A DNA stretch of 64,000 nt, taken from assembly GCA_963785235.1 (NCBI GenBank), contig CAWAUM010000005.1, positions 160,001 to 224,000 on the forward strand. Direction: 5' to 3'. Under the pieces are notes generated by a model. That model searched no databases, had not been told where the DNA came from, and saw only the letters and a list, made by a program, of their open reading frames with translations. Positions within the stretch are counted from its first letter, which is position 1. The number at the start of each line of letters is the position of its first letter. The position numbers and the translations under genes were made by a program. Origin of the DNA: an uncultured delta proteobacterium. GTDB taxonomy: Bacteria; Desulfobacterota; Desulfomonilia; UBA1062. Shown piece by piece: positions 29,755-49,290 of the stretch.

Positions 29755-30963
29755 ATGCCTAAGAATCCCCATGTTCGACCGTCCGACATTCGTGGCTTCA
29801 GCCGACTCGCTATGGACGCGATTATCGCTCTGACAGACCTGGTAGAGACCATGCACCACAACATCAGCCGCGTTCCGGGCATTCTTGGCACAACCACTCT
29901 GGATCGCACGACCGGTATGACAGGGTTGGTTTACCAGATCATCAGGGGAGTTACCCGCCTGGTGGGAGGAGGGATCGACTCGGTGCTCGCGCAGCTGGTT
30001 CCACTTATCGGGCATGGGCCATCGTCAGGCGAGCGCGAAGCCGTGCTGGCGGCCCTGAACGGTATCCTGGGCGACCACCTCGCTGCCAATGGGAATCCAC
30101 TGACGATTTCCATGAGGCTGCGATACCACGGGCAGCCGCTTGAACTGACAAGGCAGTCTTTAACTGCAGCGATCCTTAAGCCCTGCGGTAAAATACTCAT
30201 TCTCGTGCATGGGCTGTGCATGAATGATCTGCAATGGCGGCGCAACGGGCATGACCACGGCGCGGCCCTGGCTATCACTGCCGGTTTCACGCCGGTGTAT
30301 CTGCATTACAACAGTGGCCTTCATATCTCCACAAACGGTCGCGATCTTGCCGAAATGATTGAGGACCTGCTTCAGGCCTGGCCGGTACCTGTGGATGAAC
30401 TGGTCATCATGGGACATAGTATGGGCGGGTTGGTTGCCCGCAGCGCCTGCCATTACGGCAAGGCTGAAGGGAACGATTGGCTGCGATACCTGCGTAAACT
30501 TGTCTTCCTCGGTACCCCACACCATGGTGCCACACTGGCACGGGGAGGCGCCTGGGCAGGAGTCATTCTGGAGGTCAGCCCATACACGGCCGCCTTTGCC
30601 CGTCTCGGAAAAATTCGCAGCTCAGGCATTACCGACCTCCACTACGGCAGCCTGCTGGATGAAGACTGGGAGCATCAGGACCGTTTTGCACGTTCAACAG
30701 ATATCAGGCAAGACGTACCTCTGCCGGACGGTGTGCAGTGCTACGCCGTAGGGGGCTCGATCGCAAAGAAAGCGAGCACTCTGAGCGAGCAACTCCTTGG
30801 CGATGGACTGGTGCCTTTGCGCAGCGCGCTAGGACAGCATGCAAATCCCAGGCGGAACCTGCCTATCTTAGAATCGCAGCAGTGGATCGGGTACGGCATG
30901 AATCACATGGACTTGTTGGATAGCCCAGAAGTTTACGAGCAGGTCCGACAGTGGCTGTCATGA
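29755..30963 (+). CDS. PGAP1-like lipase/esterase (alpha/beta hydrolase)
   Basis: VHGLC, GHSMGG, LGTPHHG, GDGLVP, NHMDLL. Confidence 0.85.
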   Translation: MPKNPHVRPSDIRGFSRLAMDAIIALTDLVETMHHNISRVPGILGTTTLDRTTGMTGLVYQIIRGVTRLVGGGIDSVLAQLVPLIGHGPSSGEREAVLAALNGILGDHLAANGNPLTISMRLRYHGQPLELTRQSLTAAILKPCGKILILVHGLCMNDLQWRRNGHDHGAALAITAGFTPVYLHYNSGLHISTNGRDLAEMIEDLLQAWPVPVDELVIMGHSMGGLVARSACHYGKAEGNDWLRYLRKLVFLGTPHHGATLARGGAWAGVILEVSPYTAAFARLGKIRSSGITDLHYGSLLDEDWEHQDRFARSTDIRQDVPLPDGVQCYAVGGSIAKKASTLSEQLLGDGLVPLRSALGQHANPRRNLPILESQQWIGYGMNHMDLLDSPEVYEQVRQWLS

Positions 30964-31139
30964 CCTTCATGTGCCGGTTTCAAACGTCTTAACAGGATTG
31001 CAAGCCGTATCTGCCGGCGGTTAACCTTGCTGTTACGAATCCCTGGAAAGTCGCATTCTTAAAGGCGCAACCATCTGTTGACAGCATGAGTTATCTATGG
31101 TCTAGATATAACTTATCGTTATAATAAGGGGTGAGGAAT

Positions 31140-31370
31140 ATGGAAGACACGGATCTTCAGTTGATTCGTAAACTCATCTCCAAAGACAAGGATCTCAAAG
31201 GTCTTTGGGATGAACATCAGGGGTATGAGGAAAAACTTGCGCTGTTGAACAAGAGAAGATACCTGAGCACCGAAGAAGAAATACGGCGCAAGGAAATCCA
31301 GAAGCTCAAGCTGCAAGGTAAAGACAAGATTGAGGACATCCTGCGCAAATACCGTAACGAATTAGGGTAG
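31140..31370 (+). CDS. DUF465 family coiled-coil protein
   Basis: LWDEHQ.YE...LKLQGKDKI; usual position upstream of ilvB. Confidence 0.8.
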   Translation: MEDTDLQLIRKLISKDKDLKGLWDEHQGYEEKLALLNKRRYLSTEEEIRRKEIQKLKLQGKDKIEDILRKYRNELG

Positions 31371-31417
31371 AGCGGCTAAGGATACCATTGAATTGACGTT
31401 GAGAGGTTTCAGAACAG

Positions 31418-33121
31418 GTGAGTGTTAAAAAGATTACAGGTGCATACGCATTTATTGAGGCCCTGCGGTGCGAAGGTGTCAAGCACATCTTCGGCTATCC
31501 CGGAGGGGCGGTACTGGATATATTTGATGCCATCATGGATGCGCCGGATATCCAGTTCATTCTGTCCAGGCACGAGCAGGGTGCGGTTCATGCTGCAGAC
31601 GGATATGCCCGGGCCAGCGGCAGGGTGGGGGTGGCACTGGTCACCTCTGGTCCCGGCGCTACGAACACGGTGACGGGCATCGCTACTGCCTGTATGGACT
31701 CGATTCCCATCGTGGTTTTTTCCGGGCAGGTGTCGACAAATCTTATCGGAAACGACGCATTCCAGGAGGCGGATACCGTAGGCATAACACGTCCTTGCAC
31801 CAAGCATAACTATCTTGTCAAGGACTGCGCCGATCTGCCCAGGGTCATCAAAGAGGCCTTCTACATAGCCGCCACCGGAAGGCCCGGCCCGGTTCTGGTT
31901 GACATCCCCAAGGATGTCATGAAAGGTCTCATCGCCTTCAAATATCCTGACAAGGTCCTGCTGGAAGGCTACTGCCCCAACTATCGGGGCCATCCAGGCC
32001 AGATCAAACGGATCGTAAGCACAATTCTAAAGAGCAGAAGGCCCGTTATCTATGCCGGCGGGGGCGTAGTAATCTCCAATGCCTCAGAGGAGCTCATTTC
32101 CCTTGCCAGGCAACTTCGTATTCCGGTAACCACCACACTCATGGGACTTGGCGCTTTTCCTGCCGATGACCCGCTCTGGCTCGGCATGCTCGGTATGCAC
32201 GGTACCTATGCAGCCAACATGGCCGTGACCGAGTCGGACTGCCTGATAGCCATAGGTGCCAGGTTCGATGACCGCGTTACAGGAAAGGTGGATGAGTTCT
32301 CTCCCAAGGCCAGGATTATCCATATCGACATCGATCCCACCTCCATCAGTAAAAATGTCCGTGTTGACCTGCCCGTAGTTGGAGACTGCAAGTTCGTGCT
32401 GACTGACATGCTTGATGGAATAAAGGAGAAGATTCATGATGTCCATGAACTTACCAGCGGCATCGGAGACTGGCTTGACCAGATAAATCAATGGAAGCAT
32501 GAACAGCCCCTGCGTTATGAGCAAGGTGATTCGCTGAAACCTCAGTACGTGATCGAAAAAATAAACGAGCTTGCCCCTGAAGATACAATTATCTCAACCG
32601 AGGTCGGCCAGAACCAGATGTGGACGGCACAGTTCTTCAAGTTCAACAAGCCGAGACACTTTCTCACCTCCGGAGGGCTTGGCACCATGGGCTATGGTTT
32701 TCCTGCCGCCATTGGCGCCCAGGCGGCCTTTCCCGACCGTACGGTTATAGACATAGCAGGGGACGGCTCCATCCAGATGAACATCCAGGAGCTTGCCACT
32801 GCAGTCCAGTACCAGCTGAACGTGAAGGTCATGATCATCAACAACGGCTTTCTGGGCATGGTAAGACAGTGGCAGTCGCTCTTTTACCGGGGCAGGTACT
32901 CTCATACCTCAATGGCTTTTTCACCTGATTTCGTGAAACTGGCAGAGGCCTACGGTGCATATGGAATACGTGTGGATAAACCATCCGAGGTGGAGGGTGC
33001 CATACGCAAGGCCCTTTCCATAAAAGGCCCTGTCTTTGTTGATTTCCATGTGGAGCCGGAGGAGGATGTCTATCCGATGGTGCCGGCAGGCGCGCCTATA
33101 AACAACATGCTTCTGGTTTGA
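31418..33121 (+). CDS. ilvB: Acetolactate synthase large subunit
   Basis: [29 protein letters not shown]-binding motif. Confidence 0.97.
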
Positions 33122-33129
33122 GGTATCTT

Positions 33130-34643
<1,514 letters not shown>

Positions 34644-34644
34644 C

Positions 34645-35268
34645 ATGAACATACGTAAGGAAGGTTTCCCGTTTATTGCAATCGCCACTGCCCTGTTCGG
34701 GCTGTTTTTTCTTACAGGCAAGCTAGCATTGCGCCTTCTGGGTCTCGTCCCTGTGCTCTTTGTCACCTGGTTCTTCCGGGACCCGGACCGGAGGGTGCCT
34801 GACGAGAAAGGGATTGTCGTCTCCCCTGCAGATGGTAAGGTTATCGAGGTCTATCAGACTGAAGATGGCAAAGTTGGACCGTGCACCAAGGTAGCGGTCT
34901 TCATGTCGGTATTCAGTGTTCATGTGAACCGCGCGCCAATGTCCGGAACAGTTCTGGAAGTACTCTACAAGCCCGGGGCGTTTCATGTAGCCAGCCTTGG
35001 CAAAAAGACCGAGGCGAACGAACGGATGATCACCTATATCGCTACCGATGACGGCATATTCAGGGTTGACCAGGTGGCAGGGCTTATCGCGCGGAGGATC
35101 ATATGCTGGCTTACACCTGGAGATAAGGTGATCCAGGGAGACAGGATCGGGCTTATCAGGTTCGGGTCGCTCCTTGAATGTTATCTACCAAAAGGTTATA
35201 CCGCGACCTGTGAGTGCGGGCAAATGGTACAAGCCGGAACAAGTGTGATCGGAAGGAGGAGCACATGA
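34645..35268 (+). CDS. psd: Phosphatidylserine decarboxylase proenzyme
   Basis: FFRDPDR, SPADG, VHVNRAP, IRFGS cleavage motif. Confidence 0.93.
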   Translation: MNIRKEGFPFIAIATALFGLFFLTGKLALRLLGLVPVLFVTWFFRDPDRRVPDEKGIVVSPADGKVIEVYQTEDGKVGPCTKVAVFMSVFSVHVNRAPMSGTVLEVLYKPGAFHVASLGKKTEANERMITYIATDDGIFRVDQVAGLIARRIICWLTPGDKVIQGDRIGLIRFGSLLECYLPKGYTATCECGQMVQAGTSVIGRRST

Positions 35269-36083
35269 GACCGCTGAGAAAAAGACGTGAGGTAATTGAG
35301 AAACGGAAGAGGTCAGTGCCTTTTTTGCCGAATTTCATCACCACCATGAGTCTGTTCTGCGGCTTCTACTCCATCATGTTCTCTCTGAAGGCCGATTTTC
35401 ATAAGGCAGCTATTTTTATCATCATAGCTGCCTTTATAGATGGACTCGACGGGAGGGTGGCCCGTATGACGAACACCACCTCTGAGTTCGGCAAACAGTA
35501 TGATTCGCTTTCAGACCTGGTTGCCTTCGGTGTTGCTCCTGCCATAATGGTTTATCTCTGGCAGCTCAATGCCTTCGGCAGGCTGGGCTTCATCGCAACC
35601 TTCCTTTTTGTGGCCTGCGGGGCGTTGCGTCTGGCAAGGTTTAATGTTGACACATCAGGATCCATGACAAACTTTACCGGGCTTCCCATTCCGGTTGCCG
35701 CGGCCGGGGTGACCTGCACCTATCTGTTGACCGAGGAGATTGCCTCGATGATAGGGGTAACTATGACACTGGCGCCGGTGACGATCCTCATAGGTGTATA
35801 CATCCTGTCATTTCTTATGGTGAGCAACATCCCCTACCCGAGCTTCAAGCATGTCAACTACATCAAGGCGCATCCGTTCCAGCTTCTTGTAGCAGGTGTC
35901 CTGCTGCTCGGGGCTGTAGCGCTGAGACCTGAGATTATGCTCTTCGCCCTGGCCATGGCATTTATTGTGGGAGGGGCGCTTTGGAGTGGCTTAATGTACA
36001 TGATTCAGGCAAGAAATGAGAAGAAAGGGATAATAAAAGAAGATACCCATGAAGGCGTCGCAGGACATGATAATCATATTTGA
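35265..36083 (+). CDS. pssA: CDP-diacylglycerol--serine O-phosphatidyltransferase
   Basis: DGLDGRVAR..FGKQYDSLSD; LRLARFN. Confidence 0.93.
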   Translation: MRPLRKRREVIEKRKRSVPFLPNFITTMSLFCGFYSIMFSLKADFHKAAIFIIIAAFIDGLDGRVARMTNTTSEFGKQYDSLSDLVAFGVAPAIMVYLWQLNAFGRLGFIATFLFVACGALRLARFNVDTSGSMTNFTGLPIPVAAAGVTCTYLLTEEIASMIGVTMTLAPVTILIGVYILSFLMVSNIPYPSFKHVNYIKAHPFQLLVAGVLLLGAVALRPEIMLFALAMAFIVGGALWSGLMYMIQARNEKKGIIKEDTHEGVAGHDNHI

Positions 36084-36099
36084 TGCAACGAGGAGATAA
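36049..36099 (+). pseudogene. Vestigial 5' end of leuA (2-isopropylmalate synthase)
   Basis: 16-codon ORF MKASQDMIIIFDATRR resembles the LeuA N-terminus (IIIFDTTLRDG) and sits at the expected position between pssA and leuC. Confidence 0.55.
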
Positions 36100-36104
36100 T
36101 ACCT

Positions 36105-37370
36105 GTGGGAATGACTATAGCCGAAAAGATCCTGGCTGCGCATTCGCAGGTTGAAGTATTTCAGCCGGGAGACATTATAAAGGTTAATGTGGACGTGGCT
36201 CTGGCTAACGATATCACTGCGCCCATTGCCATTCAGGCCGTAAAGGAAAGCGGTGTTGAAAAGATTGCTTACGCCGATAAGGTCGTGTTCGTTCTCGATC
36301 ACTTCACGCCCAACAAGGACATCGCCTCTGCCAACCAGTGCAAGTATGTTCGGGATTTTGCACACCAGCAGGCCATCGAAAAATTTTTCGACGGCGGCGA
36401 GGCTGGCGTCGAGCATGCCCTGCTCCCTGAGAAAGGCCTTGTGCTGCCAGGCGACCTCATCATCGGGGCTGACAGCCACACCTGCACCTACGGCGCCCTG
36501 GGCGCGTTTGCAACAGGCGTAGGCAGCACGGACCTTGCTGGCGCCATGATAACAGGCCAGGCATGGATGAAGGTGCCTCGTACCATGAAGTTCGTCTTCA
36601 ACGGCACACTTCAGCCGTGGGTGGGAGGCAAGGACCTCATCCTGTATCTCATCGGCAAGATCGGGGTGGACGGCGCCCTGTACAAGGTCATGGAGATGGA
36701 AGGCCCTGCCATTTCGGCTTTAGAGCTTTCCGACCGCTTGAGCATGTCCAATATGGCAATCGAGGCAGGGGCCAAGGCAGGCATCATGGCTGCTGATGAA
36801 AAGACGATAAACTATGTCAAAGCACGCGCCACCAGGGGGTATACGGTTTTCAAGAGTGATGCGGATGCGGTTTATGATTCTCTCACCACCTTTGACTGCG
36901 GTGAAATAGAGCCCCAGGTGGCATTCCCCCACCTGCCTGAAAACGCAAGAGGTATCAGCGAGGCAGGGGAGGTAAGGATCGACCAGGTGGTTATCGGTTC
37001 GTGCACCAACGGGCGTATTGAAGATCTGCGCATTGCTGCACAGATCATGAAGGGCAACAAAGTGGCAAAGGGCCTGCGCTGCCTTATCCTGCCGGCAACA
37101 CCCGAGGTGTATGGCCGGGCCTTGGCCGAGGGAATCATTGACATCTTTCTCAAGGCCGGCTCCATCATCGGACCGCCCACGTGCGGCCCATGTCTGGGCG
37201 GACACATGGGCATCCTTGCCAAGGGCGAAAAGGGGCTTGCCACCACGAACCGGAACTTTGTTGGCAGGATGGGAGACACGGCAAGCGAGGTCTACCTCTG
37301 CGGGCCTGCTGTTGCAGCGGCCTCAGCTGTGACAGGCAAGATATCCGCGCCCCAGGAGGTGGTGAAATGA
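36105..37370 (+). CDS. leuC: 3-isopropylmalate dehydratase large subunit
   Basis: DSHTCTYG, IGSCTNGR, CGPCLG, TNRNF. Confidence 0.95.
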   Translation: MGMTIAEKILAAHSQVEVFQPGDIIKVNVDVALANDITAPIAIQAVKESGVEKIAYADKVVFVLDHFTPNKDIASANQCKYVRDFAHQQAIEKFFDGGEAGVEHALLPEKGLVLPGDLIIGADSHTCTYGALGAFATGVGSTDLAGAMITGQAWMKVPRTMKFVFNGTLQPWVGGKDLILYLIGKIGVDGALYKVMEMEGPAISALELSDRLSMSNMAIEAGAKAGIMAADEKTINYVKARATRGYTVFKSDADAVYDSLTTFDCGEIEPQVAFPHLPENARGISEAGEVRIDQVVIGSCTNGRIEDLRIAAQIMKGNKVAKGLRCLILPATPEVYGRALAEGIIDIFLKAGSIIGPPTCGPCLGGHMGILAKGEKGLATTNRNFVGRMGDTASEVYLCGPAVAAASAVTGKISAPQEVVK

Positions 37371-37861
37371 ACTTTAAAGGAAGGGCTTTCAAATTCGGCA
37401 ACGACGTGGACACCGATGCCATCATCCCGGCCCGGTACCTGAGCACCTCAGACCCCGAGACATTGAAAAAGCACTGCATGGAAGATGCCGATCCCGAGTT
37501 TCCCGGCAAGGTAAAGAAGGGCGACATCATCGTTGCAGGCAAGAACTTCGGGTGCGGGTCATCCCGCGAGCATGCACCTATCGCCATCAAGGCATGCGGG
37601 GTCAGTTGCGTCATAGCGCCGAGTTTTGCGCGAATCTTTTTCCGCAACAGCTTCAACATGGGGCTTCCCATCTTTGAATCGGACGAGGCGGCTACCGCCA
37701 TTGCCGAGGGCGATACGGTGGAGGTGGACGCTGACAGCGGTCTCATAAAGGATCTCACCACCGGGAGCCAATTTCAGGCACGCCCAATACCGTCGTTCAT
37801 GCAGGAGCTCATTGCTGACGGCGGGCTGATGGAACATATCCAGAAGACTGGGGGTATCTAG
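37367..37861 (+). CDS. leuD: 3-isopropylmalate dehydratase small subunit
   Basis: DVDTDAIIP, NFGCGSSREHA, SFARIFFRN. Confidence 0.95.
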   Translation: MNFKGRAFKFGNDVDTDAIIPARYLSTSDPETLKKHCMEDADPEFPGKVKKGDIIVAGKNFGCGSSREHAPIAIKACGVSCVIAPSFARIFFRNSFNMGLPIFESDEAATAIAEGDTVEVDADSGLIKDLTTGSQFQARPIPSFMQELIADGGLMEHIQKTGGI

Positions 37862-38297
37862 CTCTTTTCGCCCTGGAAGTTGTTATAGAGTTTTTCTCGA
37901 ATTTGCAGATATTAGAGGGGGCATAGTGCCGGTTATCATTTTTGAGCTTTTCCTGTGGTCTGTGTTCCTTGCGAATCTATTTCTTGCGGGTCATCACTTT
38001 CAAGAAATATGAAAAACCATAAAGTTATCGCGTGAGATCAATGGTTTCAAGATTTAAAGAATAGTTGACCCACTACCTATTATATTCTTCTCTTGAAACA
38101 ACTTTACTCTTGAAGGGACGATTTATTATTGCTATATAATAATGACGTTTCATTACTTGATATGAGTAGGAGGAATTCTCGTCGTGGCCTGTAGGAATAT
38201 GAAATTGAGAATTCGTATTAACAATAGATTAAACACATTATTATTGCATTCAATATGGTCTGCATTTTTCTTCAGATGAACTGTTAGAGGTATCACT

Positions 38298-38885
38298 ATG
38301 ATAATACTAAAAAGCATTCTTGTAATGATTCTAACTTTTACAGCCCTGCTCCCAACCTTGGGTTTTAGTACAGTATTGCAGGTGACCTGGAGTGCTAATA
38401 CCGAGAACGACCTGGCAGGTTATAAAGTATACTGCGGTACTCAATCAAAAATCTATGGACAGCCTATTGATGTTGGAAAAGCAAGAAGCTATCAGATCAA
38501 TAATGTCCTGGGCGGAACTTCCTACTATGTGTCATTGACTGCCTATGACACCTCTGGAAATGAATCAGCCAAATCAGGAGAAAAGAGTATAAATGTCCCT
38601 TATACCATTACTCTTGTTTCTCCTTCTAATGGTGCAACTTGCTCGTCAAATCCGACGCTTACATGGATGGGGAATGGGTTCAAGAGCTATAGGGTATTTA
38701 TCTCCATCACCGGTGGGTTGATCTACACCCAGGTCTACTCAGGAAGCAATACCTGCACCACACTTGATCCATTCCTGATTTGGCTCTTTATCCCACCGTT
38801 CATCCCTGTTACCTGGTATGTTGAGGGAACAACTTTGAATGGTCAGATCATAAATAGCAAAAGCAGTACGTTCACCAAGAGATAA
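38298..38885 (+). CDS. Secreted fibronectin type III domain protein
   Basis: Signal peptide; WSANTENDLAGYKVY...YYVSLTAYDTSGNES. Confidence 0.8.
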   Translation: MIILKSILVMILTFTALLPTLGFSTVLQVTWSANTENDLAGYKVYCGTQSKIYGQPIDVGKARSYQINNVLGGTSYYVSLTAYDTSGNESAKSGEKSINVPYTITLVSPSNGATCSSNPTLTWMGNGFKSYRVFISITGGLIYTQVYSGSNTCTTLDPFLIWLFIPPFIPVTWYVEGTTLNGQIINSKSSTFTKR

Positions 38886-38992
38886 GTATACCTTAACAAT
38901 TAACAAGAATTTCAAAATTGATCAGGAGATCATCTGTTTTAGGATTTCTCAAGACCTTGATGATATAGCAGTTATGTTCACTACGATAAAAG

Positions 38993-39331
38993 TTATGAAT
39001 CCTTGGATTTCAGATTTATGCGTATAAGAAAGCTTTCCGTATCAGACATATCGCCGATAATCTTTCTCAGTGGCTGGGGGAGTTTCTTGATGAGCGTTGG
39101 TGTGGCAATAATCTGCTCTTCCTGGGCCAGCTTGGGCTGCTGGTAGATGTCTATCACCTCAAGTTCGTAGCGGCCTTCCAGGTAGGTTTCACAGAGTTTT
39201 TTGACCTTGGTGATTGCTTCGGTTGACTTTGGGGTCATCCCTGTAACATACAGCTGAAGGACATGCTTCGCCTGGTCTCGCAATGCTGCCGCTTTTTCAA
39301 ATTCCTTAGTGCTCGTTTTCACTCTCTTCAT
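38993..39331 (-). CDS. kaiB: KaiB family protein
   Basis: LQLYVTGMTPKS..ELEVIDIYQQP.LA...IIATPTLIK.LP.P.R.IIGDMSD. Confidence 0.9.
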   Translation of the reverse strand: MKRVKTSTKEFEKAAALRDQAKHVLQLYVTGMTPKSTEAITKVKKLCETYLEGRYELEVIDIYQQPKLAQEEQIIATPTLIKKLPQPLRKIIGDMSDTESFLIRINLKSKDS

Positions 39332-39471
39332 CTATGTCTCTGTTTCACCAAATTGATTTTTCACTTCATCAAGCCATAGGTAAGTCTAACTATCTTAATA
39401 CTGAGCTTGGTCAAGTCAAGGTATTCATCGGGACAGGGAAGAGGTGACAGAGCTGACCAACTGAAAAATGA

Positions 39472-39487
39472 TGGCAAAAACCATGCA
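39472..39487 (+). promoter_or_regulatory. Candidate sigma54 -24/-12 promoter
   Basis: TGGCAAAAACCATGCA (GG-N10-GC), about 85 nt upstream of the peptide ORF. Confidence 0.5.
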
Positions 39488-39570
39488 ACATATTTTCTTC
39501 TACTTAATTAAAACCCTTATCACTATATGTTCCATCTAAAATTATGACAAAGTAATAAAGGAGGCATATT

Positions 39571-39642
39571 ATGGAAAATTGTTTAGAGTGTATAAAAGAT
39601 GGTGGTGGAGAAGGTTGTCTACCTTTATGCAAATTAGATTAA
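39571..39642 (+). CDS. 23-aa four-cysteine peptide (not in the ORF track)
   Basis: AAAGGAGG RBS 6 nt upstream; MENCLECIKDGGGEGCLPLCKLD*; terminator hairpin immediately after the stop. Confidence 0.7.
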   Translation: MENCLECIKDGGGEGCLPLCKLD

Positions 39643-39645
39643 TTA

Positions 39646-39678
39646 ATAAAGGGGGAATCAATTAAATTCCCCCTTTAT
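39646..39678 (+). terminator. Intrinsic terminator-like hairpin
   Basis: ATAAAGGGGGAAT-N7-ATTCCCCCTTTAT, 13-bp perfect stem. Confidence 0.75.
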
Positions 39679-39956
39679 CAAATCCCTTTCCTGATGATTA
39701 TGTGCTGAACTGTGGAGTCTTAAATAATATGTTCTATGTGTAGATTTCGTTATGGTCTGGGATGAAGTGATCTTCATATGTTTCAAACAAAGATCATAGT
39801 TTTTAGGGCCTTTGGAATGCACCAAGTTATCGCAGAAATCTCTGGTTCATGATCTGAGATTGCGGCCGAACATTACGAGATTACGCAGTTATTTCTAAGC
39901 AATTAATTTACTAAGTCCAGGCAATAACAGCTTCGAATAGAGGTGTTTTCAAGCCT

Positions 39957-41012
39957 TCACATGAAGTTGGACAGCTTGAACATGACCAGGAAGGGTATGG
40001 TAGGGAGTTTTTCCCTATGCGCCCCGAACACCTTCGTTTCTGTGCCGCCGAACCGTGATTTGGTGAAATACAGCCCCTTGAAGCTGAATATCCAGTTGCC
40101 ATAATTGTACAGGAGACGATTGATCTTTTTCTGTATGCCCGATTCGCAGGGCATGTCATCATCTTCGATCACCAGGGGGCACAGGCCGAGGTTGATATGC
40201 TCCACGCCTTCAAGTTTGAATACCTCCATGGCATGGTTCATGAGCGGGTAGAAGATGCCCGATTTAAATCTGTTGGAAAAACGAGAAATGTTGGGTACAT
40301 AGCCGATGATGCGGTTATCGGAATAGATGGGATCGAAAAAGATGAATCCCACAAGTTCTCCGTTCAGATATGCATAGAATTTTCTCGTTCCCTCTTCATA
40401 TTCCATTTCCATGGGTCTTATGAGGAACCCGATCTCGCGGTTTCTTACCTTGCGTGTCTTCAACCATTCACCCGTAAGCTGACGGCATCCATTGCCGGGG
40501 CAGTCTTCGCTGAAGACAACCCCTTCTTTCCTGGCATGATTTACCGATGTCCTTATGATCTGCTTTTTCTTGCCTTTCAGGTCCCAATTTTCGAGATCCA
40601 GCAGGATTTCGACCCCGAATTGAGTGGCATAAAATCCGAATCTATTGTGGAGCAGCATTGCCGTTTCTTCTGAGATCTGCACAAAGGTTGTATGCGTGCC
40701 GCCTTTGAGAAATTCCCTGAGCAGAATCTCTCGGTCCTTCATGTCGCAAACGGGATCAGCGAGTGATAAACGATTACCCCATTTTTCTCTGAAGGCCATA
40801 AAGCCTAGGCCGGGTACGTCGAAATAGTGCATTTCAGGCTGAAGAATTGAAAAGGACATACAATGGGTTCCATACTTCCTGAGGTATGAAAGCCGTTCTT
40901 CAAGGGTAAAGAGATCAACCCCTCCCGTGATCCTTGGCCGGTAGAGGTCTATGGGAACAATCTTGGCCCTCGAAATGTCTGCACGTGGTTTAGTCTGTGC
41001 CAGAGTACTCAC
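39957..41012 (-). CDS. Stand-alone DUF2156 / MprF-synthase-like (aminoacyl-tRNA-dependent GNAT) protein
   Basis: LADPVC, LKGKKKQIIRTSVNHA, GFIFFDP, FKLEG.EHINLGLCPL, FSFKGLYFTKSRF; no flippase TM domain. Confidence 0.75.
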   Translation of the reverse strand: MSTLAQTKPRADISRAKIVPIDLYRPRITGGVDLFTLEERLSYLRKYGTHCMSFSILQPEMHYFDVPGLGFMAFREKWGNRLSLADPVCDMKDREILLREFLKGGTHTTFVQISEETAMLLHNRFGFYATQFGVEILLDLENWDLKGKKKQIIRTSVNHARKEGVVFSEDCPGNGCRQLTGEWLKTRKVRNREIGFLIRPMEMEYEEGTRKFYAYLNGELVGFIFFDPIYSDNRIIGYVPNISRFSNRFKSGIFYPLMNHAMEVFKLEGVEHINLGLCPLVIEDDDMPCESGIQKKINRLLYNYGNWIFSFKGLYFTKSRFGGTETKVFGAHREKLPTIPFLVMFKLSNFM

Positions 41013-41054
41013 GTAGGTGTATCTCCTTTTAAGGTTTTTCTAATCAACAATATC

Positions 41055-42662
41055 CTAGCGGTTTTTCCCCAAACGCTCATGGCTCGTGACCCAGTCCAGC
41101 GATGCGATGGCTCCGGCAAGGGAGATCTCACCGGCCGTTGCTGCAGCGGCAACGATCTCTGCAAATTTCAAGACCTTGCCCTGGCCATAACAGTCAAGTG
41201 ATTCCAGGCATTCACGCTGGGTGGGCAGCCCCGTACCGCCGCCATATGTGGCCACGATCAGAGAGGTAAGTGTCAGCGACCCATAAAAATCACCTTCCGG
41301 TGTGACCTCGGTACATACCATACCGGCAGATGATTCGGATACGTTCGCCACATCCTGGCCCGTTGCCATGAAGATTGCGGCCAGGGCATTGGCTGCATGG
41401 AGACCGTTACTCGAAGCACCTGCCATGAAGGCCCCGGTCTGGCAGGCCCTGCATAGGTAATCCAGCGTAACAGGGTCAACCCTCATATGCTGGATCATTA
41501 CCTCTTTCGGGATGTGGATCTCGCCAATGACCCTCTTGCCGCGGGTGATCAGGTTGTTGATGAAAGAGGCCTTCTTGTCAGTGGAGATGTTTCCGTCCAG
41601 ATAGAAGTGACGAACTGTATTCACCTGGGAGAGTATCCAGTTGGATGCCGTGTATGTACACATGCTGACCATGTTTTGTCCGGCGGCATCGCCGGTGAAG
41701 TAGTTGAATCTAACGTATACGAGCCTGCTGGCCATATACTTCTCTATAGACAGGAGCTTTGCAACCTTTGAGGCGGACTCGGCATGCATCCTGATCTCAT
41801 CCATATGTTCATCGATCCACAGCATGAAGTCCCTGCCTTCACGTGCCGAATCGAAGGCAAATGCCGGCGAGCGCTGCATGTGATCTTCAACTACGGTAAC
41901 CTTTACGCCCCCGCACATATTGATGAGTTTCATCCCCCGGCTATAGGATGCCACCAGACTTCCTTCGCTCGTGCACATGGGGATGAAGAATTCACCCTTG
42001 GCATGTTCGCCATTAACCTTGAGCGGTCCGGCAAACCCCAGGGGGATCTGCGCCACGCCGGTGAAATTCTCAATATTTCCCTTGGTGAGGATGGGGTCAA
42101 AGGAATGTTGCTTTATATGCTTGAACTGGGCGCCGGTGTACCCTTCTAAAAACTCCTGCCGCTGCCGGACAATATCCATGTTGTAGTTGTCAAGCTTGTC
42201 ATAGGGCATCTTCTTCTGGGCTTCTCTGGCCTCGATGACTGAGTCTGAGGCCTCCAGATCCAGTAATCCATAAAGATCAGTGTGGAAGGATATGGTTATA
42301 GTGTGCTGTGTGTTTTTTGCTAACGCCGTTGTCCGCACAGTGAATTCCACATCTTCGCCCATGGGGAAAGCAAGGGGTTGTTCCGGGTTTATCAGGGGGG
42401 CATTGAGGCAGGTTCCATTGCTCTTCATGGTTATGTCATCCAATGCGATTTCAAGCCCGTTGATGGAGATGCCAGCGAGTTCGGTGATCAGGGCATCCTT
42501 CATGGGGTTTTTCATGGAGAAATACACACCGTCATCAAGGTTTTTCAAGGTCCCGATAGAATAGATCTTCTTCATAATGATCGGTGGTATGGCAACATGA
42601 CTCTTGTTCTCTTGAGTATTGCGGATCAGCACAAGCCCTGACTCTTTTGTTGTATTGCCCAT
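41055..42662 (-). CDS. Class I-like HMG-CoA reductase homologue with a ~150-aa N-terminal extension
   Basis: GNIENFTG..IPLG.AGPL, PMCTSEGSLVASYSRG, TGDAAGQNM, DKK, GQDVA, TYGGGTGLPTQ and C-terminal SH. Confidence 0.88.
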   Translation of the reverse strand: MGNTTKESGLVLIRNTQENKSHVAIPPIIMKKIYSIGTLKNLDDGVYFSMKNPMKDALITELAGISINGLEIALDDITMKSNGTCLNAPLINPEQPLAFPMGEDVEFTVRTTALAKNTQHTITISFHTDLYGLLDLEASDSVIEAREAQKKMPYDKLDNYNMDIVRQRQEFLEGYTGAQFKHIKQHSFDPILTKGNIENFTGVAQIPLGFAGPLKVNGEHAKGEFFIPMCTSEGSLVASYSRGMKLINMCGGVKVTVVEDHMQRSPAFAFDSAREGRDFMLWIDEHMDEIRMHAESASKVAKLLSIEKYMASRLVYVRFNYFTGDAAGQNMVSMCTYTASNWILSQVNTVRHFYLDGNISTDKKASFINNLITRGKRVIGEIHIPKEVMIQHMRVDPVTLDYLCRACQTGAFMAGASSNGLHAANALAAIFMATGQDVANVSESSAGMVCTEVTPEGDFYGSLTLTSLIVATYGGGTGLPTQRECLESLDCYGQGKVLKFAEIVAAAATAGEISLAGAIASLDWVTSHERLGKNR

Positions 42663-42749
42663 TCGTTTTCCCTCTCGTTGAAGTATGAGATTTTATCCCA
42701 GCCAGTAATTATACGTTTTCAGATAGAGATAATGCCAAACTTATTTTTA

Positions 42750-42765
42750 ATCAAAAATCATGCCA
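42750..42765 (-). promoter_or_regulatory. Candidate sigma54-type promoter of the HMGR-DUF2156 unit
   Basis: Minus-strand TGGCATGATTTTTGAT (GG-N10-GA); inverted repeat AATCTTCTT-N12-AAGAAGATT at 42864-42893 as a possible UAS. Confidence 0.45.
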
Positions 42766-43029
42766 GGGAAAAGACAGGGTGAATATGGCAATAACCAACT
42801 GAATATACAAAAGATAAATATAACATTGTATCCATATGTAAATAATTCAATATGTGTAGAGGAAATCTTCTTCCGTTCTAAGAGAAGAAGATTCCTTTTC
42901 ATGTCAAGCCAACGCGTGGGATTACATCAAAAACTGTAATTTAAGTGAGTTGTTTTCAGTTCATTTAGTGTTAGTGCCGCATCCTTTTTTCTGCTAATAA
43001 CTTGCTACGATAATATCTGGAGAAAGCCT

Positions 43030-44031
43030 ATGCCGGCAGGTTTAAAAGTAGCCATAGTGGAGCCCACCGAACTGGTAGGTGCCGAGATAACTAAGATCCT
43101 GGAAGACCGTAGTTTTCCCGTTGCAGAGTTGATCCTGCTTGGGGGAAGCCGCTCAGCCGGGGAGAGGGTTGAATTCCAGGGCACCGAAATTCCGGTTAAG
43201 ATGCTGGACAGCCTCTCATTCACTGGCGTGGATCTGGCTTTTTTTGCGTGCGGTAAGGCAGTATCCATGGAATATGTCGCAAGGGCAAAGGCCGCAGGTT
43301 CTCTTATTATAGACCTCAGCTCCTGTTTTTCCCTTGCCGATTCAGTACCGCTCGTTGTGCCTGAGATAAACGCATCCGCACTGAAACTGCACCAGGGCAT
43401 CGTTGCATGCCCCAGGGCGTCCACCATACAGTTGGTCCTGGCGCTGGGACCCATCCACAAGGCAGCCAGGATAAAGAGAGTCATTGTCTCGACCTATCAG
43501 GCCGTGTCTGACAACGGAGGCAGGGCCTTGGATGAACTTACTTCACAGATAAGGGATCTTTTCAGCTTCCGCGAGATAAGCAGCAAGATCTACCCTCAGC
43601 AGATTGCCTTTAATGCCCTGCCCCAGGTGAGGCCATTTGCGAAAGGCGGCTATACCGAAGAGGAAATGACCATCTGTTCGGAGACACAAAAAATCCTGGG
43701 TGACAAGAACTTGCGTATATCTGCCACCAGTGTGTATGTGCCGGTATTCTTCTCCAACGCCGAATCCATCCTCATTGAGACGGCGAAAAAGATCACACCC
43801 GAAGAGGTCAGGGAGATATTGGAAAAGGCCCCGGGCGTGGGGGTTGAGGACGACCCCGGCGCCAACCTGTATCCCACCCCCATCCACGCATCCGGAACAG
43901 ACGAGTGCCTGGTGGGCAGGATCAGGCAGGACCTTTCCTCGGACAACGGTATAGTGCTGTGGAGCGTGTGCGACAATATCCGTAAAGGCGCTGCCCTCAA
44001 TGCAGTCCAGATCGCAGAACTGCTTATATAA
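43030..44031 (+). CDS. Aspartate-semialdehyde dehydrogenase-like protein with degenerate active site (Usg-like)
   Basis: Asd fold (VPLVVPEIN, STYQAVS, IAFNALP, DNIRKGAALNAVQIAE), but catalytic motifs are altered. Confidence 0.8.
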   Translation: MPAGLKVAIVEPTELVGAEITKILEDRSFPVAELILLGGSRSAGERVEFQGTEIPVKMLDSLSFTGVDLAFFACGKAVSMEYVARAKAAGSLIIDLSSCFSLADSVPLVVPEINASALKLHQGIVACPRASTIQLVLALGPIHKAARIKRVIVSTYQAVSDNGGRALDELTSQIRDLFSFREISSKIYPQQIAFNALPQVRPFAKGGYTEEEMTICSETQKILGDKNLRISATSVYVPVFFSNAESILIETAKKITPEEVREILEKAPGVGVEDDPGANLYPTPIHASGTDECLVGRIRQDLSSDNGIVLWSVCDNIRKGAALNAVQIAELLI

Positions 44032-44070
44032 GTATCCTCATGATCATATAAAGGCAATGGTGATCATGCC

Positions 44071-44844
44071 ATGAGAATGACGCTGGGACAATATCTGCCG
44101 CGAGATTCCTTTGTGCACAAGGTTGACCCCCGGGTTAAACTCTTTCTCATGGGCTTAGGTATAGGGATTACCTTCAAGCTGGAAGGGTTGCTTTCCCTGG
44201 CAGCACTTGTGCTGACCTGCATTGCATTCACCTTTTTTTCCAAAATATCATTGAAGAGTATCATGTCAGGACTGGCGCCGTTTCTGTGGCTCTTTCTTTT
44301 CACTGCAATCCTCCATATGTTCATGACACCAGGCGACCCTTTCCTTATCCCGTACACCACAAAGCAGGGGATCATGGGCGGCGGGCGCGTTGCCCTGCAA
44401 CTTATGCTCGCCATCTGGATTTCAACACTCACCACGCTCACCACATCCCCCCTGGATACGGTTTGGGCCCTTGAGTGGTACATGAAACCACTCAAATATA
44501 TGAACGTTCCCACTGATGAGATTGCCTTGGTGGTCATGCTTGCCATACGTTTCATTCCGCTGCTCTTTGAAGAAACCGACCGGATTATCAAGGCCCAGAA
44601 GGCCCGTGGCGTTGATCTGGAATCGTCCGGGTTCGTTCGCAAGGTGAAGTCCCTTGTTCCAGTGCTTGTTCCATTACTGCACAGTGTATTCAGGAGGGCG
44701 GACGATCTGGCGGTTGCCTTGACCCTTAGGGGCTACTCGCCCGGTATCACGAGGACCCGGATGAAGGAGATGGCCATGCATCGGGCAGATGTTATGGCCT
44801 TGGGTGGTGTGAGTTGCTGGTTTGTGGGGCTGCTTGTTCTCTAA
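44071..44844 (+). CDS. ecfT: Energy-coupling factor transporter T component
   Basis: VHKVDPRVK, AIRFIP, AQKARG and LRGY motifs. Confidence 0.88.
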   Translation: MRMTLGQYLPRDSFVHKVDPRVKLFLMGLGIGITFKLEGLLSLAALVLTCIAFTFFSKISLKSIMSGLAPFLWLFLFTAILHMFMTPGDPFLIPYTTKQGIMGGGRVALQLMLAIWISTLTTLTTSPLDTVWALEWYMKPLKYMNVPTDEIALVVMLAIRFIPLLFEETDRIIKAQKARGVDLESSGFVRKVKSLVPVLVPLLHSVFRRADDLAVALTLRGYSPGITRTRMKEMAMHRADVMALGGVSCWFVGLLVL

Positions 44845-44953
44845 GTATGAAGCACATGCCGGAATCATTTGTCATAACGCACAAATTTTTGTATAAAGGT
44901 TAATAGCTCGTTGCTTACTGGTGCCCGGCACCGATGAATAGCATGACATAAGA

Positions 44954-45415
44954 ATGGAGGCAGTAATGTCTGACGGACTTGATTTGATGATTGTTGACGA
45001 TGAACAGCATGTATGCGAGGTGCTCTCAGAGACCATAAAGAAGTTTTACACCTGGGGTGATGTCTTAATATTCAATGATTATGAAACTGCTGTATCCTAT
45101 TGTCTTGCCAGAGATAAAGGATTGATGATCTTTATCCTTGACGTGTTTGTGGGGGAAAGTAATGGCTTTGCCTTTCTGGATGCAATTGCAGAGAAATATC
45201 CCAATGCAAACTATGACACTGTGATGATTTCCGGCATGGCCAGTGAAGATGTGGTGGACATGTGCATTGCATCCGGGGTGAATCACCTCCTGGAAAAGCC
45301 TATAAAGAATTATGCCTTGCAGCTTGCCATAAGGTCTATTGTCATGAAGTATGTAAAATTTGCCAAGAAGATCCTGACTGATACGGAGTTTGCAGAGATC
45401 ATAGACCGTATTTGA
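44954..45415 (+). CDS. Single-domain response regulator (receiver)
   Basis: IVDDE, ILDV, ISG, EKP. Confidence 0.85.
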   Translation: MEAVMSDGLDLMIVDDEQHVCEVLSETIKKFYTWGDVLIFNDYETAVSYCLARDKGLMIFILDVFVGESNGFAFLDAIAEKYPNANYDTVMISGMASEDVVDMCIASGVNHLLEKPIKNYALQLAIRSIVMKYVKFAKKILTDTEFAEIIDRI

Positions 45416-45447
45416 TAAGGAAGGTAGTCAATAAGAGCGCCCTAAAT

Positions 45448-46254
45448 ATGGATATATCAACCAACCTTATTATCGCTATTGCGGTCTTTGCCGGCATCCT
45501 GCTTGTACTATGGTTCTTTTCACGAAGGGCTCTTGGTAGCGATGCAGATAGGATAGAGAGTATACGTGCAGACGCCCAAAGGGGCGATGTATATTCCCAA
45601 TTCAGGCTGGGCCAGATTTATTATGAAGGCAAAACCATAAGCAGAGATGATGCCGAGGCTGCAAAGTGGTTTCTCAAGGCCGCAGCACAGGAACATTCCG
45701 AGGCTCAGTATATCCTGGCATCTATGTATGAAAAGGGTGTGGGCCTCAAACAAAGCGATTCTGAGGCATTCGGCTGGTATATTTCCGCTGCAACCCAGGG
45801 GCATGAAAGGGCATCTGTCATTCTGGAGGCAGACAAGTGGACAGTCTTCAAGAAAAGCCACCTGGTCCGGGATGAGGTTAATCTTCCTAAGGCTATGGAA
45901 TCCCAGTTACAGCCGGAACACACAGAAGAGGTTAAGCCTTTAACCGGAGATGAACAGCTTCAGAAATATCTGGCCAAGGCACAGGCCGGGGATGTAGATG
46001 CCCAGTATAATATCGGCACCATGTACTACCATGGCGAAGGTGTTGAAAGGGATCTTGATCAGGCCCTGAAATGGTTCCATCTGGCTGCCGAGCAGAACGA
46101 TACAGCGGCCCAGTTTAACCTCGGCTTCATGTATGGTAAGGGCGAGGGAACTCCAAAAAATCACAGGGCGTCTATGGAATGGTTTAAGAAGGCAGCATCC
46201 CAGGGACATTCAGGAGCCCATGAGATCCTGGAAAAGATGTTCAGAAAGACTTAA
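45448..46254 (+). CDS. Membrane-anchored Sel1-repeat protein
   Basis: N-terminal TM segment; repeated AQYNIG.MY..GEGV..D...A..WF..AA.Q. Confidence 0.9.
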   Translation: MDISTNLIIAIAVFAGILLVLWFFSRRALGSDADRIESIRADAQRGDVYSQFRLGQIYYEGKTISRDDAEAAKWFLKAAAQEHSEAQYILASMYEKGVGLKQSDSEAFGWYISAATQGHERASVILEADKWTVFKKSHLVRDEVNLPKAMESQLQPEHTEEVKPLTGDEQLQKYLAKAQAGDVDAQYNIGTMYYHGEGVERDLDQALKWFHLAAEQNDTAAQFNLGFMYGKGEGTPKNHRASMEWFKKAASQGHSGAHEILEKMFRKT

Positions 46255-46331
46255 GTTACATGAGCCCTTTGTCTATCAAAGAAAAATGAGGGAACCACCC
46301 TTATAACTGCACAATGGTATCTGATTAAAGG

Positions 46332-47078
46332 ATGAGTGTGTCTGAAAATAAAAAACGATTTTATACCGTGGTAAGGGGCAGGGTGCCTGGGATATATACC
46401 AGCTGGTTCGGACCGTCAGGAGCAGAGGAGAAGATCAGGGGTTATGCCGGGGCCATATATCGCGGGTTTGCCACCATGGAGGAGGCCCAGAACTTTATGG
46501 CACACCCACAATCCTACCCGGTACGGAAACAAGGCGCATACAGTAATGGGCATACGGAAGAAGGCGACCAGGAAGACCATAAACGTCCAATCCACATATA
46601 CACGGACGGTGGGTGTATCGATAACCCCGGACCAGGCGGCTTCGGGGCGGTGATCATTGAAGGTGACAAACGAATTGAGATCTCCGGGGGATACCGGCTC
46701 ACCACGAACAACCGCATGGAACTCACAGCCTGTATCCAGGCTTTGCACAAGTTAAGGAAAGGCTCGACTGCAGTGATCTTCACGGATTCGCAGTATGTGG
46801 CAAATGCCATTCAGAAGGGGTGGGCTATGAAATGGCGCTCACGGAACTGGATGCGTGACAAGACCCATAAGGCCATCAACTCAGATCTGTGGGCAGAGCT
46901 GCTCAAACTCCTTGAAAAGCATGATGTGGTCTTCCGTTGGGTGCGAGGCCATGCCGGCAACCCGGAGAATGAACGGTGCGATGTGCTGGCCACAATGGCA
47001 GCAAAAGGGACCGAACTGGCCCCTGATACAGGATATGAGAGTGCTATGAATGAACTCAGAGAATCAAGACTGTTCTAA
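46332..47078 (+). CDS. rnhA: Ribonuclease HI with N-terminal hybrid-binding (viroplasmin-like) domain
   Basis: FYTVVRGRVPGIY..W; IYTDGGC.NPGPGG, TNNRMEL, TDSQY, WVRGHAG..ENERCD. Confidence 0.93.
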   Translation: MSVSENKKRFYTVVRGRVPGIYTSWFGPSGAEEKIRGYAGAIYRGFATMEEAQNFMAHPQSYPVRKQGAYSNGHTEEGDQEDHKRPIHIYTDGGCIDNPGPGGFGAVIIEGDKRIEISGGYRLTTNNRMELTACIQALHKLRKGSTAVIFTDSQYVANAIQKGWAMKWRSRNWMRDKTHKAINSDLWAELLKLLEKHDVVFRWVRGHAGNPENERCDVLATMAAKGTELAPDTGYESAMNELRESRLF

Positions 47079-47422
47079 ATTTTATTGCTGCTGATAAATT
47101 CAATCCACTTTTCATCATCAGAGGTGCTGGTAATGGTTATTGCGCCTTCACCCCTCTTGAGGTCGACCCAGGCAATAAGCCCATTGAGGGTCAAGGCCTC
47201 TACCGGGAGCATGACACGCAGAGGTGCGCCGGTAAAGTCTTTTTGTTGAACCATACTCATTGTTTTAAAGATCTGAGGCGAGATCAGGCGCATACCATGC
47301 TGGCTTATGTCCTGCGCGATGCCACGACCGTTGAGCAGCACGCCCATCTTGAGCAGCACCGTGATCTTGACCTTCTTCCGGTGCTCCACTCGCCGTTCTT
47401 GTGCAGCATCATCTGTGTCCAT
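47075..47422 (-). CDS. PilZ domain protein
   Basis: ERRVEHR (RxxxR) and DISQHG (DxSxxG). Confidence 0.8.
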   Translation of the reverse strand: MDTDDAAQERRVEHRKKVKITVLLKMGVLLNGRGIAQDISQHGMRLISPQIFKTMSMVQQKDFTGAPLRVMLPVEALTLNGLIAWVDLKRGEGAITITSTSDDEKWIEFISSNKI

Positions 47423-47602
47423 GGTACATTCCCTCTCGTGTAACCTTTCTCATATCATCACTATGAGATTGAAGATTATTATTTGATGTAATCTATACAA
47501 TACATTCAAATAAAAGTTAAGCAAGCAGAAGATCGGATTTTATGCCCTTGCATGAGTGATCAAGCCGATAATTCAGCCCCGGTATAAAGTATCTGCTCAT
47601 AA

Positions 47603-48079
47603 ATGACGAGAAGGGGTCTATGTCGGATAACAAAGGTAAGCACAAAAGATAAGCGTAAGCAGGAACGGCTGCCTTCCAGGCATCCTGCCCGGCTTAAAAT
47701 ATCCCTTTCGAGTCGGGATTCCGGTAAAATATTCCAGGGGATTCAGAGCGTGCTTGCCATGGCTGAAACAAAGAACATCAGTATAGGCGGAATGTCGCTC
47801 AAGATAGTTGGGTCACCCTTTGATGCCAAGAAGAGCCTCACCAGGGCTAATGCCGCACAGGTAGTTGGAAGACCCATAGAAGTAATCCTTGAAGAAGAGA
47901 ACATCATTATCTGGGGTGATGTCATCCGGACCGAGGCTGATACACTTGATCTTGCCATTGTGATTTACAAGGTGTCCGATGTGCAGGAGTGGAAGAAGCT
48001 CTGCAGCGAAAAGGCGCAGGGAATCAGCATTTTCCCTGACTCTCTGGCAGTGAGGCGCAAGAGAAGAAGCGATAAATAG
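47603..48079 (+). CDS. PilZ domain protein
   Basis: KRKQER (RxxxR) and NISIGG (NxSxxG). Start uncertain. Confidence 0.75.
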   Translation: MTRRGLCRITKVSTKDKRKQERLPSRHPARLKISLSSRDSGKIFQGIQSVLAMAETKNISIGGMSLKIVGSPFDAKKSLTRANAAQVVGRPIEVILEEENIIIWGDVIRTEADTLDLAIVIYKVSDVQEWKKLCSEKAQGISIFPDSLAVRRKRRSDK

Positions 48080-48198
48080 TCAACAAAAGCGTCCATACAT
48101 GGCAAAGCGCTTGTATAATACGACTTCGCATAACTTCTCGATTATCTCATAAACAAGTTATTATTCTTCGTAAACGCAAAATCTTAGGATAGTTCACA

Positions 48199-49287: not shown

Positions 49288-49290
49288 AGT

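Follow-up and report, generated by a model that had tools for sequence, protein, structure and literature searches.

The spacing Cys-X2-Cys-X8-Cys-X3-Cys is that of the second [4Fe-4S] motif of the R. capsulatus ferredoxin FdN, in which, according to the available portion of the source, the last cysteine of the motif is not followed by proline (PMC12223475), and the same spacing defines the ferredoxin subtypes 2[4Fe-4S]ST2 and AlvST1 in the accessible sections of the respective report (PMC11430716). E. coli YfhL has this spacing as well, and a literature search for C-x2-C-x8-C-x3-C returned ferredoxin papers only. Half-ferredoxins, which bear on how the first electron carriers arose, were described under the name of 'semidoxins', both designed and natural, in a 2025 paper (PMC12648291); the available parts of that paper present 55 natural candidates of ~30 aa with one motif each, which were drawn from InterPro ferredoxin signatures, come nearly all from anaerobes and so far from thermophilic anaerobes only. 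One of these natural semidoxins, PD1 from Thermoanaerobacter, is described in the same parts of the text as redox-active, with a potential of -438 mV, and as a mix of monomer and dimer (PMC12648291).

Here we analyze a 23-codon gene that encodes a peptide with the same cysteine spacing. The gene lies in a 64,000-nucleotide stretch of DNA from an uncultured delta proteobacterium (hereafter, the window; all positions are counted from its first letter) and had been singled out, in a reading of the letters and a list of open reading frames alone (the sequence-only reading), as a self-contained gene below the cut-off of that list. The features of the locus are as follows.

39434-39570, + strand: conserved upstream block, the putative promoter and 5' leader.
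39472-39487, + strand: doubtful sigma-54-like site TGGCAAAAACCATGCA, with two mismatches to TGGCAC-N5-TTGCW.
39530-39549, no strand assigned: block TTCCATCTAAAATTATGACA, derived from the alignment of 17 copies.
39557-39564, + strand: Shine-Dalgarno sequence AAAGGAGG, 6 nt ahead of the ATG.
39571-39642, + strand: ORF of the mini-gene, 23 codons for MENCLECIKDGGGEGCLPLCKLD, stop codon TAA; unannotated.
39646-39678, + strand: terminator hairpin with a perfect 13-bp stem and a 7-nt loop, -18.3 kcal/mol.
39679-39705, + strand: right edge of the cassette; homology ends at 39676 in contigs L022 and L054, and at 39705 in L044.

Exact translation of the ORF gives MENCLECIKDGGGEGCLPLCKLD, with the cysteines at positions C4, C7, C16 and C20, in agreement with the CxxC-x8-CxxxC pattern read from the letters. 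The peptide is acidic, lacks a signal sequence as well as serine, threonine and tyrosine, and does not show the hydrophobicity of type I toxins. On its left the mini-gene is flanked by a KaiB gene (38993-39331, - strand) and on its right by a convergent gene for a DUF2156/LPG_synthase_C protein (39957-41012, - strand), followed by a gene for HMG-CoA reductase (41055-42662, - strand), so that the nearest enzymes are those that had been named. Neither a second copy of the mini-gene nor another small, cysteine-rich ORF of like kind led by a Shine-Dalgarno sequence was found in the genome.

Several features of these neighbors are recorded here in their own right. The KaiB-domain gene has a second copy, with 81% DNA identity, on another contig (C1:634662-635030), and no kaiC was seen within 30000-50000 of the window. 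The HMG-CoA reductase carries an extra N-terminal domain (PF25653) and is encoded directly upstream of the DUF2156/LPG_synthase_C gene (39957-42662, - strand, for the two together); the DUF2156/LPG_synthase_C protein is missing the usual membrane flippase part, and the pairing of these two genes is unusual for a bacterium.

Among the relatives, a six-frame search revealed the peptide in a second species of the genus (G010), and a profile search added a species from a different genus within the family (G071). With the host genome counted, carriers comprise 3 of the 52 genomes of the family and 3 of the 122 genomes of the class, and among 401 sampled genomes of the phylum no match was convincing. 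With every prokaryote species represented by a single genome, a pattern scan again yielded these two relatives, and an analogous scan of metagenomes gave 14 contigs, the seed patterns confining both scans to close relatives. This gives 16 further copies, of which two come from species genomes and 14 from metagenome contigs; the 17 ORFs comprise 11 different nucleotide sequences, which encode eight versions of the peptide. None of the eight variants has an exact copy among ~15 billion predicted proteins, the peptide strings do not occur in the searchable literature, and a collection of viral contigs yielded no relative of the peptide. Weak matches that came up in wider genome searches were rejected because they either fell within larger genes, in a different frame, or did not have the motif.

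The check that the sequence-only reading had called for, a search for homologs that keep the spacing of the cysteines, came out in its favor, with the spacing retained in 17 of the 17 copies. Altogether 17 of the 23 residues are invariant, among them all four cysteines, the GGGEG loop, L5, L17, P18, L19 and L22. The variable sites are distributed over codon positions 1, 2 and 3 as 6, 3 and 17, with synonymous leucine changes accounting for four of the six at the first position; between the copies on contigs L022 and L046 there are 13 synonymous substitutions and no non-synonymous one, and dN/dS amounts to 0.03-0.07 in the pairs with computable, unsaturated dS. The pattern of substitutions shows that the mini-gene is evidently subject to strong purifying selection. 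We consider it nearly certain that 39571-39642 is a genuine protein-coding gene, and the claim of a real gene below the ORF cut-off is borne out by the codon-periodic variation of its homologs together with their invariant cysteine spacing. It would be highly improbable, by comparison, that the ORF is an untranslated chance frame within a conserved non-coding RNA or a bidirectional terminator region: the 6/3/17 periodicity and the 13 to 0 count in one pair run against that explanation, the ORF is kept while the flanks are unrelated, its RNA fold in the window sequence is not significant (MFE of -13.6 versus -10.3 +/- 2.5 for shuffles), and Rfam gave no match over 38800-40200.

A single metatranscriptome shares 9% of the sampled words of 38900-41100. 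Its contigs, 85-95% alike, correspond to the kaiB and DUF2156 genes of relatives, and 39344-39935 is free of them; these contigs come from other strains and therefore have no bearing on the expression of the mini-gene.

Four independent signals had been invoked in support of the gene, and three of these, namely the ORF, the ribosome-binding site and the hairpin, are conserved far beyond chance, whereas the sigma-54 site is not. The ribosome-binding site was located as read, and AAGGAG, 7 nt ahead of the ATG, is present with constant spacing in 17 of the 17 copies. The perfect 13-bp hairpin was likewise found where it had been described, starting 3 nt past the stop codon, with its stem arms at 39646-39658 and 39666-39678. 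A hairpin follows the stop codon in all 17 copies (-14.7 to -25.8 kcal/mol), in the form of two unrelated types, the second of which, a canonical GC stem with a T-run behind it, takes the place of the hairpin seen here in 10 of the 17. Since there is a hairpin behind the stop in every copy, the unit ends directly after the ORF, and the comparison of the copies shows what is evidently a single-gene unit whose boundaries are set by a ribosome-binding site and a terminator of its own. The 3' arm of the 39646-39678 hairpin is complementary to the Shine-Dalgarno sequence; pairing between the two was considered and rejected, as it is not kept in the copies with the other type of terminator.

The combination of four cysteine codons among 23 with a terminator directly past the stop is also what would be expected of a cysteine-sensing leader peptide that acts, with its terminator, as a transcription attenuator. 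However, the next gene is convergent in the window and the largest group of copies has a convergent tRNA gene in this place; furthermore, there is a single hairpin with no alternative antiterminator fold, and conservation extends to all residues, beyond the cysteine codons. Owing to the gene orientation, this explanation is close to refuted and we give it hardly any credence.

The sigma-54-type site does occupy 39472-39487, and it contains GG-N10-GC, and rpoN (sigma-54) is encoded in the genome; as a signal, however, TGGCAAAAACCATGCA found no support, its match quality being no better than chance (23 matches of this quality in the window versus 36.7 +/- 5.9 in shuffles), and it is kept in 5 of the 16 other copies, namely the ones in which the upstream block is shared in full. 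Apart from the Shine-Dalgarno sequence, TTCATCTAAAAT, the core of TTCCATCTAAAATTATGACA, is the one upstream element common to all copy types. On the + strand, the TTCCATCTAAAATTATGACA block may hold a -10-like TAAAAT, and on the - strand it corresponds to the -35 element and spacer of a TTGTCA-17-TATAGT match. A scan for sigma-70 promoters gave 6 matches (3.6 +/- 1.6 expected), none of them kept in all copy types.

The sigma-70-like TTGTCA-17-TATAGT, at 39522-39550 on the - strand, faces away from the mini-gene and overlaps TTCATCTAAAAT, and inspection by eye of the equivalent place in L022 (3960-3990) reveals TTGTCA-17-TATAAT. Because this minus-strand match overlaps the block found in all copies, the cassette may include a divergent promoter or give rise to an antisense or upstream RNA.

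Alignment of the copies delimits a cassette of ~245-270 bp (39434-39676/39705). At its left edge, homology to L022, the contig from G071, and to L044 starts at 39434-39435, and homology to L054 starts at 39501. Identity within the upstream block is 117/138 with L022 and 125/136 with L044, and the ORF is identical to that of G071 at 63 of 72 positions; the module as a whole is 85-87% identical to its G071 counterpart, to be compared with 71-73% for the ilv-leu housekeeping genes. The genome of the closest relative (G011, 94-96% identical, and 92-95% identical over ilvB-leuC) follows the window as far as 39436 and departs from it thereafter; its assembly, which is 88% complete, does not contain the peptide. 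A repeat search in four copies detected neither terminal inverted repeats nor target duplications at the cassette edges. An apparent 10-nt match between the left edge here and the right edge of L044 was noticed by eye.

The cassette occurs in about ten distinct gene neighborhoods. In G071 it is flanked by genes for a nitroreductase and a flavin reductase and by adjoining AbiE toxin-antitoxin genes, in L054 by a hemerythrin gene, in L045 by an IS3 transposase and a Fer4-nitroreductase, and in L044 by a gene that, in the present genome, is located 20 kb away. The copies of the GC-rich group are flanked by a gene for a PEGA lipoprotein and a convergent tRNA-Thr or tRNA-Ala gene and, in one case, by prophage genes; the orthologous tRNA-Thr locus of the present genome is without the mini-gene. 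Redox proteins (nitroreductase, Fer4-nitroreductase, flavin reductase and hemerythrin) are thus encoded next to the cassette in three other contexts. The KaiB, DUF2156 and HMG-CoA reductase genes, in contrast, are neighbors of the mini-gene in the present genome only, and for this reason the suggested link between its homologs and DUF2156-HMGR or kaiB found no support.

Comparison of these contexts shows that the cassette evidently occupies differing positions in the genomes of a small number of related anaerobic Thermodesulfobacteriota. The GC3 of the ORF is 0.12 here, versus 0.57-0.69 in host and neighboring genes, and that of the tRNA-linked copies is 0.43-0.61. Taken together, the patchy occurrence of the gene (3 of 52 genomes of the family), the diversity of its neighborhoods and its deviant GC3 point to horizontal spread of the cassette. 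We read the data as suggestive of two forms, an old resident one and an AT-rich one that would have spread horizontally.

Several observations pertain to the surroundings of the cassette and of its relatives. Between the terminator of the mini-gene and the stop codon of the DUF2156 gene, at 39746-39867, there is a short dispersed repeat with no match in Rfam, of which about eight partial copies (35-92 nt, 76-88% identical) are present elsewhere in the genome and many copies in the same-genus genomes G002, G003, G004 and G011; both G011 contigs end near this segment, as expected for a repeat. In genomes of the G010 type, the mini-gene is located in a tRNA-Thr(CGU)/amino-acid ABC transporter locus (L049, 3300-4340). 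At the same tRNA-Thr(CGU) locus of the present genome (contig C5, ~593.6-594.7 kb), the tRNA gene is preceded by unrelated DNA that includes an apparent partial copy of the tRNA, which suggests an integrated element at that site. Just upstream of the cassette in G071, an open frame on the - strand (L022, 3712-3825) resembles, by eye, the C-terminal part of a DsbA/thioredoxin-like protein and may be the remnant of a gene that was cut when the cassette arrived.

Two explanations of the function are taken up next. One holds that the product is a metal-free small protein with a function tied to the mobile cassette, which would bind one host protein as a regulator, an inhibitor, or a selfish, defence-related or addiction-type peptide. 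The patchy distribution (3/52), the sharp edges of the cassette and the foreign codon usage are in line with such a role, as are the constraint on almost every residue and the occurrence of the cassette, elsewhere, next to prophage, IS3 transposase, AbiE toxin-antitoxin and tRNA genes. On the other hand, the peptide lacks the hydrophobicity of type I toxins and is absent from the viral contig collection, its conservation does not extend to an antisense partner or a second gene, and four invariant cysteines at ferredoxin spacing would be left unexplained. We regard this possibility, which comes next after the mononuclear metal site discussed below, as unlikely.

The other explanation, a RiPP-like precursor of a modified peptide or cofactor, of the kind of PqqA and MftA, with the maturase encoded elsewhere in the genome, had been one of three functions offered by the sequence-only reading, and we consider it distinctly unlikely. 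The cofactor precursor PqqA is of comparable size and shows near-total sequence invariance, and in both respects the present peptide is similar to precursors of this type; in addition, the genome has 49 radical-SAM matches. None of these 49 falls inside the window, as had been noted, and maturase families are represented by 0 of the 31 neighboring proteins in nine other contexts. There is also no match to an NCBIfam precursor model, the peptide contains no serine, threonine or tyrosine, the conservation shows no split into leader and core, and the cassette moves alone. The absence of an adjoining maturase in any context disfavors the RiPP precursor, just as the absence of a co-directional gene behind the mini-gene in the window disfavors the attenuator. 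A disulfide-stapled hairpin, also among the three functions offered, appears unlikely because the peptide has no signal sequence and the host is a strict anaerobe. The remaining one, a mini-protein binding zinc or an iron-sulfur cluster, is favored by the known [4Fe-4S] spacing.

In comparisons with protein families, no match was obtained in Pfam at E<=1 (with Fer4 families, rubredoxin, desulforedoxin and zinc fingers included), in NCBIfam (0 families at E<=10) or among PDB sequences at E<=10. With respect to Fer4, the peptide shows a documented cysteine variant but no match to a profile or solved structure and no two-motif fold; an FdN-type ferredoxin as a possible source was not found in the genome, and no remnant of a first motif is present in any upstream frame. 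A BLASTP comparison aligned residues 2-22 of the peptide with residues 36-56 of YfhL without gaps (E=0.028 for a single comparison), and hhalign against a YfhL profile gave the same register (P=0.0045, probability 7.7%). When the cysteines were held fixed, the 19 non-cysteine columns scored better than 95.6% of 20,000 permutations (p=0.044), a result obtained with 62 distinct YfhL segments that form one narrow group close to the E. coli protein. The likeness to YfhL outside the cysteines is statistically weak and is best described as a resemblance that falls short of demonstrated homology and could be due to the cysteine spacing plus chance.

Some metal-thiolate centre in the peptide seems somewhat more probable than none. 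The reading that we put forward, tentatively and at less than even confidence, is that this centre is specifically an iron-sulfur cluster and that the product is a tiny Fe-S peptide resembling semidoxins. The 23-residue peptide would stay in the cytoplasm, as it lacks a signal sequence, and C4, C7, C16 and C20 would hold the cluster. The cysteine spacing, the hydrophobic residues after Cys1 and Cys2, the glutamate before Cys2 and the (L/V)-C-x-(L/I)-(D/N) end appear to copy the extended-loop [4Fe-4S] motif of FdN/YfhL/Alvin-type ferredoxins, and on this basis the peptide would represent a free-standing half-ferredoxin motif. The redox proteins encoded beside the cassette in three other contexts are in keeping with this reading. 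It might exist as a monomer around one [4Fe-4S] cluster or as a homodimer sharing two clusters in the manner of the two ferredoxin halves, and could act as a low-potential one-electron carrier or as a carrier of clusters; the exposed invariant Leu/Ile residues and the Gly-rich loop would form a docking face for a partner. The complete proposal, that is, an encoded 23-residue [4Fe-4S] peptide which would be the smallest natural iron-sulfur protein, with the extended-loop motif alone, in the form of a monomer or a cluster-sharing homodimer, on a ~250-bp cassette spreading between anaerobes, is rather doubtful when all its parts are taken together.

Several considerations weigh against the Fe-S reading. 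The peptide, with its 23 aa, is without the flanking strands of a ferredoxin motif and is below the ~30-aa size of the semidoxins. In ferredoxins, it is the other cluster to which a motif's fourth cysteine is bound, and a monomer of the peptide would therefore need a different geometry. The near-invariance of residues that are not ligands is unusual for a simple metal loop, and a specific protein partner or a processing enzyme fits this pattern equally well; moreover, there is no Pfam, NCBIfam or PDB match, the hhalign probability is low and the permutation result derives from a narrow YfhL group.

The main rival is a micro-protein with a mononuclear Cys4 site, holding one Zn2+ or, in a rubredoxin- or desulforedoxin-like manner, one Fe2+/3+, where the metal would be the only core of a hairpin-plus-turn fold that acts by docking on a partner. 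The four invariant cysteines indeed form two pairs around a Gly-rich turn, and hydrophobic residues that are both exposed and invariant point to a binding face. In zinc ribbons and rubredoxins, the consensus of the knuckle is C-x2-C/C(P)XCG. The pairs of the present peptide are CLEC-I and CLPLC-K, the second of them being C-x3-C, that is, without such a knuckle and at odds with the two knuckles of zinc ribbons; nor are there the CxxCG and CPxCG or CC pairs of rubredoxins and desulforedoxins, no rubredoxin, desulforedoxin or zinc-finger Pfam profile is matched, and the full spacing is exactly that of the ferredoxin motif. On the positive side, one-domain zinc-finger proteins are widespread in prokaryotes, according to the available parts of the respective reports (PMC6562870, PMC11241148, PMC10716476), and a designed 28-residue miniature of rubredoxin exists, as described in the accessible text of PMC10130062. 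We assign the mononuclear site a minority share of the probability, as possible but doubtful. Under the Fe-S, Zn/Fe-Cys4 and metal-free readings alike, a specific partner is suggested by how strongly each residue is constrained.

A strongly selected, conserved gene has thus been wholly missed by current annotation, and, as units of horizontal transfer go, a cassette that carries one gene plus the signals for it and changes position between genomes is unusual. Should the peptide bind a cluster as the Fe-S reading has it, the class of half-ferredoxins would be widened by a directly synthesizable 23-mer. The peptide would then also be a living counterpart of the metallopeptide and half-ferredoxin stages in the Eck-Dayhoff model of the origin of ferredoxins.

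The closest known systems include FdN, YfhL and Alvin-type ferredoxins, with which, as far as the available parts of the sources describe them, the peptide shares the identical cysteine spacing, C-x-E-C-(I/V) and (L/V)-C-x-(L/I)-(D/N); a final cysteine without a proline behind it is shared with FdN, and the glutamate ahead of Cys2 as well as the hydrophobic residues after Cys2 and before Cys4 are shared with the YfhL segments. However, those proteins, as described there, are 80-90 aa long, with two motifs and a C-terminal helix, whereas here the motif stands alone, and their loop is of the type GHY..PT, whereas the present one is GGGEG-rich.

They also include the semidoxins, which, in the available text, are likewise very short, stand-alone peptides of anaerobes with a single ferredoxin-type Cys4 motif, for which a [4Fe-4S] monomer and/or homodimer is proposed as it is here. 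The differences are in length (23 aa here versus ~30 aa) and in the motif (C-x2-C-x8-C-x3-C here versus C-x2-C-x2-C-x3-C); furthermore, the present peptide is missed by ferredoxin signatures, comes from MAGs of Thermodesulfobacteriota and is encoded on a mobile cassette, and its cluster binding is putative. It is accordingly shorter than the semidoxins, has another documented motif variant and is out of reach of a signature-based search.

The one-domain zinc-finger micro-proteins of Haloferax volcanii, as presented in the accessible portions of PMC6562870 and PMC11241148, are similar in being Cys4 proteins of tiny size that stand alone and have often escaped annotation, but have ~40-70 aa and two C(P)XCG knuckles, in contrast to the bacterial, knuckle-less peptide described here. 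Finally, the synthetic ferredoxin maquettes and [4Fe-4S] peptides, in the available parts of PMC10946529 and PMC3320576, demonstrate that four-Cys peptides of this size can hold a redox-active cubane; those are man-made, whereas the present peptide is genetically encoded and evidently under selection.
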